From contig OX597832.1 in NCBI GenBank assembly GCA_951406725.2, positions 56,730,001 through 56,794,000 of the forward strand: a stretch of 64,000 bases of DNA. Direction: 5' to 3'. Source of the stretch: Octopus vulgaris. Lineage: Eukaryota. This document shows, in pieces, positions 7,505-59,799 of this stretch. A program made the translations under genes and the position numbers. The notes below the pieces were generated by a model that was not told where the DNA came from, did no database searches, and saw only the letters and a list, made by a program, of their open reading frames with translations. How positions within the stretch are numbered: position 1 is the stretch's first letter; each line of letters starts with the position of its first letter.

Positions 7505-7690
7505 GGGGGAATTCACAAAAAGACGAAAGACAAAGACAGGTGGTGTAGACAACAAACAGATGTAATAGTTTAACGTTCGGGAAGTGAAAAAGTCTTTGAT
7601 GTTTTGAGCCTACGCTCTTCCACACAAAGGAACACAGAAAGAAACAAGGAGAGAAAATAAAGAATGTGTAGTGGCTAGTGATCTATCATG
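7505..7690 (-). mobile_element. Penelope-like pLTR-type repeat with a decayed minimal hammerhead (HH1 family)
   Basis: Homologous to 43832-43980 (+); reverse strand CTTT-GTGTGGA-AGAGC-GTAG-GCTC-AAAAC-ATC-AAAG at 7594-7629. Confidence 0.6.
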
Positions 7691-7696
7691 GTATTG

Positions 7697-7826
7697 AAGT
7701 GTACAGTGTTATATATCCATTACAGTTGATCTAACCAATCAGTTTCCCACTAGGGATTCAACGGAGTGATAGATAACAGTCCAAGTATGTAACCCTGTGC
7801 TCATCAGAGCTAGTTGTTATGGAATT
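7697..7826 (-). ncRNA. Repeat carrying a type I hammerhead-like ribozyme with extended stem II (HH2 family, copy 1)
   Basis: Reverse strand CCATAACAACTAGCT-CTGATGA-GCACAGGG..CCCTAGTGG-GAAAC-TGATTG-GTT-AGATCAACTGTAATGG; second copy at 59650-59780. Confidence 0.65.
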
Positions 7827-7877
7827 AAATATGGCGATTGCATACATATATACACATGTAGATATACATATATATGC

Positions 7878-8078: not shown

Positions 8079-8400
8079 CAGGATGTCCCAAAAGTTACTA
8101 ATGGGTTTCAATTTTTAATAACTTCTTTAACTTTACAAATAAATGCATGAAATCTTGATACAATATAAAGGACATAATGGAAATTAATATGCACAAGTCA
8201 GATTTTGCAACACCACTACATCACATATGAAAAATGACATCGCTTAAATGGCAACCATTTTCAGCTTTGCATGCCTGTGAGCTTTCCAAAACTCGCACCA
8301 TAACATCCTCAAGAGTTTCAAACCCCACTTCTCGAATTTCTCTATTGATGTGCTCCAGAGTCCCCTGTTTGTTGACATAAACTCTCTCTTTCAGGTATCC
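8079..8400 (-). pseudogene. Tc1/mariner transposon 3' end with TIR and transposase C-terminus
   Basis: TA|CAGGATGTCCCAAAAGT terminus; ORF 8221-8430 reads GYLKERVYVNK..REIREVGFETLEDVM..C...NGCHL. Confidence 0.8.
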
Positions 8401-31848: not shown

Positions 31849-32033
31849 TGAGAAAAACTGCAATAACAGTTAGACTGTGTTTTGCTGATGAGGTTCCACA
31901 GGGCTGAAACGTTCTCATGGTTATCTCTGTATTATAACAAAAGAGAAAACTCACTCCTCACTTCTTTTTGTATTTTTAATTAATTTTAATCAATTTAAAT
32001 TCTAAGGGTTGTCTTCTTTGCTTTTTCTGGACC
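31849..32033 (+). mobile_element. ~185 bp repeat with a hammerhead-like core (HH3 family, copy 1)
   Basis: CTGATGA-GGTTC-CACA-GGGCT-GAAAC at 31885-31910; near-identical inverted copy with the same boundaries at 43067-43253. Confidence 0.6.
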
Positions 32034-43253: not shown

Positions 43254-43831
43254 TCCCTCTTATATGTATGTAATATAATTTTTCTGAATCTTCAGATTTT
43301 TCTATATGCTAGACCACTGGTTTTAAATTGATATTAATCAAATTAATATTCAATTTTTCACCCGTATTATTTTAAATTTAAATTAAAATAACTATGTTCT
43401 CTAACCGGCAAAATTAACTGCAGAGAATTATTTTCTGCAGAATTATTTCCGGTATTTTGGTGTGCCAAAGTGAAGACTTTTGAAACATAACCCCAAATGT
43501 AATTGGTAGAACTATATACATGTTCAATCTCATGCAGACATCCTTTGCATAGTTCTGCATATTATATTTTGCTATGATGATCACATTGCCGAGTTGCAGA
43601 CATCTATGTAAGTGATTACATAAGTGGTAACAACGAAAGTAGTTTGTGATTAATCTATATATTTTGTATCTTTTCATTTGTCTTGCTCGCTTACATTTTG
43701 GCGTTTGCTGAACTTTCTTGAGAACATTCCTTTCTTAGTGGTAAGACAATAGAGGGTCAACTTCTAGCATAATGAACGTCTACTTAGTGGTCATCCCTCT
43801 TATATGCATGTTATATATATATATATATATA

Positions 43832-43980
43832 TCTTTGTTTTTTCTGTGTACCTTTCTGTAGAAGAGCGTAGGCTTGAAACGTAAATGACTTTTTCCCTTC
43901 CTGAGCGTTATACTAATACATCTGTTTGTTTTGTACACCACCTGTCTTCGTCTTTTGTTGTTTTTTCGTAAACTCTCCCC
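43832..43980 (+). ncRNA. Penelope-like pLTR-type repeat with a minimal type I hammerhead-like motif (HH1)
   Basis: CTTT-CTGTAGA-AGAGC-GTAG-GCTT-GAAAC-GTA-AATG at 43852-43887; flanked by (TA)n. Confidence 0.6.
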
Positions 43981-59440: not shown

Positions 59441-59649
59441 TAAATCAGTTTTTCTCAAAGGGGAGGCCTATGGGATGGTCAGACACCATCCATTGGACGG
59501 GGGGGGGGGGGGGGGGAGCGTTATGCTCCTATATACATACATATATATATATATGTATATATGTATGTATATATATCTATCTATCTATCTAACTATCTAT
59601 CTATCTATCTATATCTATATCTATATATGTATGTATGTATGTATTAATA

Positions 59650-59780
59650 GAAGTGTACAGTACTATATATCCATTACGACCGATCTTACCAATTGGTTTT
59701 GTGCCAGAGATTCAATGGAGTGTTTGGTAACAGTCCAATTATGTAACCCAGTGCTCATCAGAGGTAGCCATTATGGAATG
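59650..59780 (-). ncRNA. HH2 family copy 2 (hammerhead-like, G12 decayed)
   Basis: Reverse strand CCATAATGGCTACCT-CTGATGA-GCACTGGG..CTCTGGCAC-AAAAC-CAATTG-GTA-AGATCGGTCGTAATGG. Confidence 0.65.
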
Positions 59781-59799
59781 GAATATATACATATATATA

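Follow-up and report, generated by a model that had tools for sequence, protein, structure and literature searches.

The closest described relative of the locus studied here is Hydra-1_Obim, a published octopus Penelope-like element (PLE) of the Hydra clade, which belongs to the C-terminal EN+ PLEs; its hammerhead ribozyme has a stem II of 23 nt (PMC8557442, Files S1/S2). Section 11 of that paper marks the clade by RWK, DKT, a CxCx5C linker, CxxC and CxH, and the 26 rows for Hydra hammerheads in its File S2 give a stem II of 12–26 nt. Two spike-moss elements in the same table, PLE-X1_sMoe and PLE-X1_sTam, have ~50–53 nt between CUGANGA and GAA, drawn as 9 bp with a 34-nt loop, with no subfamily comparison in the table, and flagged as deviating from the canonical structure; they are plant elements of another clade, endonuclease-less and rDNA-targeting. 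The animal Minimal/PLE hammerheads of PMC4209133 lie in the pLTR, with a helix II of 6–8 bp, longer than canonical, and a self-complementary stem III; they are mostly single truncated copies, of which low activity is expected. For Poseidon_Ac of the green anole, a member of another clade, PMC11167929 describes two internal RT starts behind the ribozyme that give an optional tail of 30–40 nt, extension of both strands, AT-rich targets and an ORF that starts inside the ribozyme. Type I hammerheads of PLE ancestry are also borne by the animal non-LTR retrozymes (PMC7229834; bioRxiv 10.64898/2026.07.22.740005), described as short tandem ORF-less repeats (PMC7229834). The stems of natural hammerheads span a wide range of lengths (PMC3088659), and the role of the hammerhead in PLEs is stated as an open question in PMC8557442.

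The window, i.e., the whole 64-kb stretch of octopus DNA that was analysed, carries two hammerhead-like motifs, both on the minus strand, and the parts of a type I hammerhead can be placed in both, as the preliminary description had it. The two copies are 80% alike over 140 nt (E 4e-32) and form the only such pair in the window, where the repeat search was dominated by microsatellites. Copy 1 (7693..7841, minus strand) is read as a 5′-truncated end of a Hydra-clade PLE, subfamily A (see below), that extends from −109 to ~+40 of the predicted cut. Its ribozyme starts with the 5′ arm of stem I (7808..7822; 2 bp at the core, an internal loop and distal pairs) and the core CUGAUGA (7801..7807), which leads into the 54-nt stem II (7747..7800), an irregular long hairpin in the family that carries here a G10.1-G11.1 mismatch. 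GAA (7746–7744), the 10-nt stem III (7743–7734) and U17 (7733) follow (7733..7746 in all), and beyond the cut, predicted between 7733 and 7732, lies the 3′ arm of stem I (7717..7732). The remaining 7693..7716 correspond to the short 3′ end of the element, located at ~+47 in the family, with no long tail. Upstream of stem I, a zone with a decayed CAGT-like motif (7826..7841, with the A at −107 at 7839) is the candidate transcript start, where the 5′ ends of copies pile up; the 5′ side of the copy is a TA-rich repeat.

Copy 2 (59642..59786, minus strand) is a 5′-truncated end of the same subfamily, reaching from −100 to ~+45 and flanked by TA-type microsatellites. Its hammerhead (59671..59776) consists of the stem I 5′ arm (59776–59762), the core (59761–59755), stem II (59754–59701), a G12A substitution at 59700, stem III (59697–59688), A17 (59687) and the stem I 3′ arm (59686–59671). 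The cut site in copy 1 and the damage called earlier, the mismatch in copy 1 and G12A in copy 2, are thus the same in our analysis. In 119 nt, copies 1 and 2 differ from the subfamily A majority at 16 and 13 positions, respectively, 7 of which are CpG transitions in each, in line with the CpG decay proposed before. Owing to G12A, copy 2 lacks the complete core CUGANGA/GAAA/UH, neither copy folds as a hammerhead alone in the predicted folds, and both are decayed and likely inactive. Since neither ORF nor UTR of the family was found elsewhere in the 64-kb window, these copies are bare ends of ~145 nt. The neighborhood is rich in other repeats. Upstream of copy 1, window ~8090–8400 (minus strand) resembles what we take to be the decayed end of a Tc1/mariner-type transposase. 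Another repeat occupies ~7530–7680 (minus strand), directly behind copy 1, and recurs at ~43800–43930 (plus strand, at 43861). It contains GAAGAGCGTAGGCT..AAAC and may represent a different family of ribozyme-like elements. An unrelated hammerhead-like motif with a short stem II occurs at 31885 (plus strand) and 43217 (minus strand), in an inverted pair 97% complementary over 187 nt.

In the 2.8-Gb genome, a DNA search with the motif gave 1400 first-look candidates, 40 of which were scored, and 43 matches. A pattern spanning the core was present at 93 places and its reversed control at none, so the motifs are not due to chance. Exact 25-mers from behind the cut occur at 137 places for subfamily A and at 97 for B and B2, from which we estimate ~1,100 and ~700 arms, respectively, at 7–8% divergence. 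After removal of duplicates and partial hits, 200 profile hits yielded 134 distinct full-length ribozymes. Four subfamilies hold 126 of them, namely A (56, including both window copies), B (26), B2 (14) and C (30), the other 8 falling into small clusters; this sample is biased by the queries used, and the counts are not genome proportions. The copy nearest to its subfamily majority is still 4 of 119 nt away, with medians of 10–15, and the family therefore looks extinct. Contigs of four sequencing runs (organisms coded B–E) match the ribozyme at 80% likeness, which shows its presence only. No hammerhead was reported by Rfam among the 150 listed of 192 window matches, nor at E≤10 on two near-consensus copies. 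As the core-only hammerhead search of PMC8557442, for its part, allowed 7–17 nt, standard searches miss such ribozymes.

The genomic copies form a 5′-truncation series, and most of the 30 loci picked 700 nt upstream reach the ribozyme. The longest ones enter a decayed ORF comprising an RT, a CxCx5C linker and a GIY-YIG-like domain with CxxC-LxEK, LN and CxH. The linker and endonuclease motifs were read by eye in decayed copies (L048, L052, L054, L046, L129), while RWK and DKT are seen at the N-terminus of the ORF in translations of L096, L097 and L101. The adjacent Penelope RT/GIY-YIG ORF that the preliminary description told us to look for, and with it the link to PLEs, is therefore found in the longer genomic copies. 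The ribozyme lies ~600 nt behind the endonuclease, near the 3′ end as in the Hydra clade, and together with its tail it also precedes the ORF in the most complete copies (L094, L096, L097, L101), where the ORF starts ~250 nt behind the cut. The unit of the element is ~2.95 kb, as measured on one copy (L091), which fits the single ORF of Hydra elements, generally <3 kb, and the TA or CA repeats after most 3′ ends fit Hydra insertion into TA. The pLTR, the tail at one end and the inverted 5′-truncated copy reproduce the insertion architecture of PLEs. Judging from motifs read by eye in decayed copies, the two window motifs are very likely pLTR ends of a Hydra-clade PLE. No CCHH motif was seen by eye in the decayed translations, which were read without an alignment to CCHH-bearing endonucleases, and no intact ORF of the family was found among 150 scored endonuclease matches and 50 fetched loci. 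Pfam returned nothing on two fragments of the family and, on a sister-family ORF, GIY-YIG at E 0.022, below the cut-off. In one copy (L038:795–1076, minus strand) the 5′ two thirds of the ribozyme are locally triplicated with a period of ~77 nt.

The family shares with Hydra-1_Obim, as documented in PMC8557442, the motifs RWK, DKT, CxCx5C, CxxC and CxH, the TA targets, a type I hammerhead near the 3′ end with a stem III of 3–4 bp, and a related tail. The ribozyme motif of Hydra-1_Obim is also found in the genome of the window, at 21 exact places, and our ribozyme, tail and UTR queries gave no DNA match to the ribozyme region of 15 of these 21 copies. Amino-acid identity between the two in the thumb, linker and endonuclease is 39–55% in decayed copies; a count by eye along one stretch of the RT gave 59 of 83 alike. 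The 3′ UTR is ~600 nt long versus <200 in Hydra-1_Obim, and a 5′ repeat is present, whereas "no pLTR" is noted for Hydra-1_Obim in PMC8557442. By sequence, the window family is a sister of Hydra-1_Obim and not the same family. The long tail (e.g., L048:2371–2436) has CTCTA and TTYTCCTGAYTTATG in common with the tails of Hydra-1_Obim (L398–L412), as noticed by eye, the ribozymes being unrelated in sequence. A third Hydra-like family (L144, L146; 600–900 nt behind the endonuclease) has 44% endonuclease identity and longer open frames, and the stem II of its hammerhead, with 31 nt, is intermediate between those of Hydra-1_Obim (23) and of the octopus family (54). The family described here was proposed to be an undescribed one from cephalopods. 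This stands in so far as neither it nor its ribozyme was found in the literature searched, the repeat databases Repbase and Dfam and the supplementary files to PMC4209133 and the 2026 preprint being places that may hold the family or long-stem examples; an octopus Hydra PLE with a hammerhead had, however, already been published.

The majorities of all four subfamilies carry the CUGANGA, GAAA and UH core of the type I hammerhead, which is intact in 41 of 95 copies not selected by the core pattern. Identity between subfamilies is 92–100% in the core, 100% in stem III, 65–94% in stem II and 74–94% in the upstream UTR; apart from N7, no difference separates the four in the core, GUA or stem III (ACCGAUUGGU). 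The ancestral stem III is ACCGAUUGGU and not ACCGAUCGGU as first reconstructed, since columns 89–90 of subfamily A read TG in 47 and CG in 2 of 56 copies, and the 3′ side of stem II is mostly UAGCGC where UGGCGC had been supposed. The perfect palindrome of copy 2 is the product of one CpG decay. Stem III is predicted to form 3 bp with a 4-nt loop in the monomer and ten pairs in a dimer (−12.4 kcal/mol); a dimer would be possible but is not required by the predicted fold. With stem I open, the three-stem layout is the predicted lowest-energy fold in B, B2 and C, apart from the stem I register, and in A it is predicted to cost 2.2 kcal/mol more. On 74 copies, 85% of cells are paired, versus 28–47% for slid controls. 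Stem I, which like stem II contains internal loops, has only two pairs at the core (three in C) and extends to ~12 pairs; a shifted register that captures C3/U4 is predicted to be as stable or more, and the active-like state makes up 0.3–15% of the computed ensemble in a model without tertiary contacts or Mg2+. In a full-length hammerhead, G12A lowered cleavage by a factor of about one million (PMC2553840); here it is a common decay (22 of 51 A copies). The ancestral ribozyme probably cleaved. Copies starting at the cut were considered as a sign of cleavage in vivo and rejected: they seemed enriched in A (3 of 66) and were absent in B (0 of 67).

Stem II is 54 nt long in all four subfamilies. 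The insert of ~38 nt that the preliminary description placed inside it pairs itself, and the whole is therefore one irregular 54-nt hairpin and no loop. It folds with 19–22 predicted pairs at z −3.8 to −6.6, a stability reached by at most 1 of 500 shuffles, and the inner 38 nt alone still give z −2.1 to −3.7. In sequence, stem II drifts at about the pace of the upstream UTR, with length and pairing kept: pair 32-73 (A-U/G-C) shows double-sided changes that do not come from CpG decay, pairing is also maintained by one-sided changes and register shifts, and subfamily C makes up for one nucleotide lost from the 5′ side with one gained on the 3′ side. The same number of random substitutions costs much stability, with P 0.001–0.02 in 7 of 12 directions between subfamilies and 0.05–0.27 in the other 5; the low values are mostly those towards A, B or B2, with 0.05–0.12 towards C and 0.27 from B2 to B, and four related masters represent few events for such a test. 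Against conservation of the shape, RNAalifold on 74 decayed copies retains only 8 pairs at −0.27 kcal/mol. Likewise, 18 pairs with a double-sided change do not exceed the shuffles (71 of 500 as high), and many of the C-G/U-A "compensations" are double CpG decay. On balance, stem II was probably kept as a helix; selection likely acted on its shape, as judged from few events, and it would have been kept for shape and length rather than for sequence. With ~20 bp and bulges, it is far from the helix II of the animal PLE hammerheads cited above. The length of 54 nt, called unusual at the outset, indeed lies outside the range published for Hydra and is new for the clade within the File S2 table, but not for PLEs, because of the ~50 nt of the spike-moss elements.

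The copies end on the 3′ side at one of two points, ~+47 or ~+110 from the cut, where TA or CA repeats take over. We studied a sample of 140 arms picked only by the 25-mer at +12 to +37 (the first 70 of 137 places for A and the first 70 of 97 for B and B2), in which a few insertions are counted from both arms in the twin-arm counts. An inverted partner accompanies 60 of the 140 arms. A long-tail partner is found for 33 of 38 short arms and for none of 22 long arms: twins combine one short and one long end. By analogy with Poseidon_Ac, we infer two internal RT start sites and extension of both strands, the optional tail being ~63 nt here and thus longer than in the anole element. In nearly all copies the sequence runs through the cut site unscarred, which implies a template that was either uncut or religated.

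At the 5′ side, only 3 of the 133 arms at risk start at the cut. By contrast, 46 of 140 5′ ends fall between −86 and −130, i.e., 1.6% per nt versus 0.3 and 0.5% on either side (binomial P 4e-11); this interval was chosen after seeing A and was met again in the fresh B sample (24 of 70). Both window copies start inside this zone (−109 and −100). Arms with the long tail have their peak there too (17 of 32 at risk, ~3 of 60 rows being mis-anchored in this test), and the pile-up is therefore tied to position and not to length, which excludes a fixed cDNA length of ~150 nt as its cause. At −107 lies the A of a CAGT motif that looks like an initiator element. We lean slightly towards the view that the pile-up marks the 5′ end of the RNA just before stem I. 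Against a start at −107, the pile-up is broad (45 nt) with no spike at this position, and in some 5′ repeats that connect to the ORF side the start lies farther upstream, at −168, −390 and −444. Two other causes were discarded: a long-range helix between −118..−111 and the tail, acting as a block to the RT, is found in A and B2 only and is unsupported, and TA microhomology is at odds with the few ends in the more TA-rich −60..−50 stretch of B. A selection by the 5′ UTR gave 39 loci, of which 30 remained once 9 overlaps had been removed. In 13 of the 30 (within L223–L256) the 5′ UTR or ORF start (+218 to +538) is joined directly to a piece starting at −90 to −160, and one of the loci, L235, reads as one full turn of a 460-nt stretch in circularly permuted order. 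The junctions of the 13 joins all differ and show no splice signals, which rules out splicing; the joins fit an RT that jumps after reaching the end of the RNA.

Considered jointly, these observations are best accommodated by decayed ends of a Hydra-clade PLE with a long-stem-II hammerhead that was copied from uncut RNA, a reading we hold with good confidence. The RNA would start near −107, just before stem I; the RT would start at +47 or +110, just behind the ribozyme, and run to the RNA 5′ end, starts in the 3′ repeat giving the longer copies. The ancestral ribozyme would have been slow or conditional and would have served the processing of the element's RNA. Unscarred crossing of the cut site is also expected if the RNA was cut by both ribozymes, circularised and copied round, as in the model proposed in PMC4209133, with the ~−105 pile-up reflecting an RT block by structure or bound protein. 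This alternative, which could also account for the more-than-unit and permuted pieces (L224, L229, L235, L240), is doubtful in our eyes: no conserved structure exists at −100 to −130, the helix to the tail being confined to A and B2, with none in B or C; the long-tail arms, which would have opened such a helix, show the same peak; and a linear uncut RNA needs fewer steps.

A non-autonomous tandem retrozyme, i.e., a short ORF-less repeat copied via circular RNA, had been offered in the preliminary description and would suit the short and ORF-less nature of most copies, the 13 of 30 direct joins of ORF start to ribozyme and the single turn of the 460-nt piece in L235. Yet many copies have the ribozyme and the ORF in one continuous stretch, no two of the 13 junctions are alike, so that they do not stem from one amplified master, and no same-strand arrays were present among the places listed, including 100 of the 137 A 25-mer places. 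The family is thus made of dispersed, ORF-linked pLTR ends, unlike the animal retrozymes; the tandem retrozyme reading is largely refuted for it and we regard it as very improbable. The ribozyme could also be a catalytically dead relic, whose long stem II is neutral or only a handle for the element's protein. The lack of an excess of copies starting at the cut and the predicted weakness of proximal stem I with its competing register would agree with this, as would the observation in PMC11167929 that ribozyme mutants of Poseidon_Ac do not impair insertion. However, all core positions but the free N7, together with GUA and stem III, are unchanged between subfamilies whose UTR differs by about a quarter, and a relic seems quite improbable. 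As an extension of the preferred copying from uncut RNA, a slow hammerhead at the RNA start might have been a protein-gated switch between copying and processing, an idea that we rate as unlikely. With two pairs, stem I would allow C3/U4 to shift to an inactive register; the 54-nt stem II would be a handle or ruler for a protein dimer that holds the RNA uncut while two RTs start. If this were true, the positions of the copies' 5′ ends would trace the promoter of an element now extinct.

The window family is a variant of a known arrangement and no new kind of element. It combines a pLTR-borne hammerhead with long helix II and mostly truncated copies, as in other animal PLEs, with the two 3′ ends and AT-rich targets known from Poseidon_Ac, from which it differs in the place of its ORF start, behind the ribozyme and not inside it. 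Its four subfamilies constitute a natural series in which a very long stem II appears to have been kept by shape, and the ends of its copies give genomic support to two RT start sites and to the copying of uncut RNA, now in a second clade.
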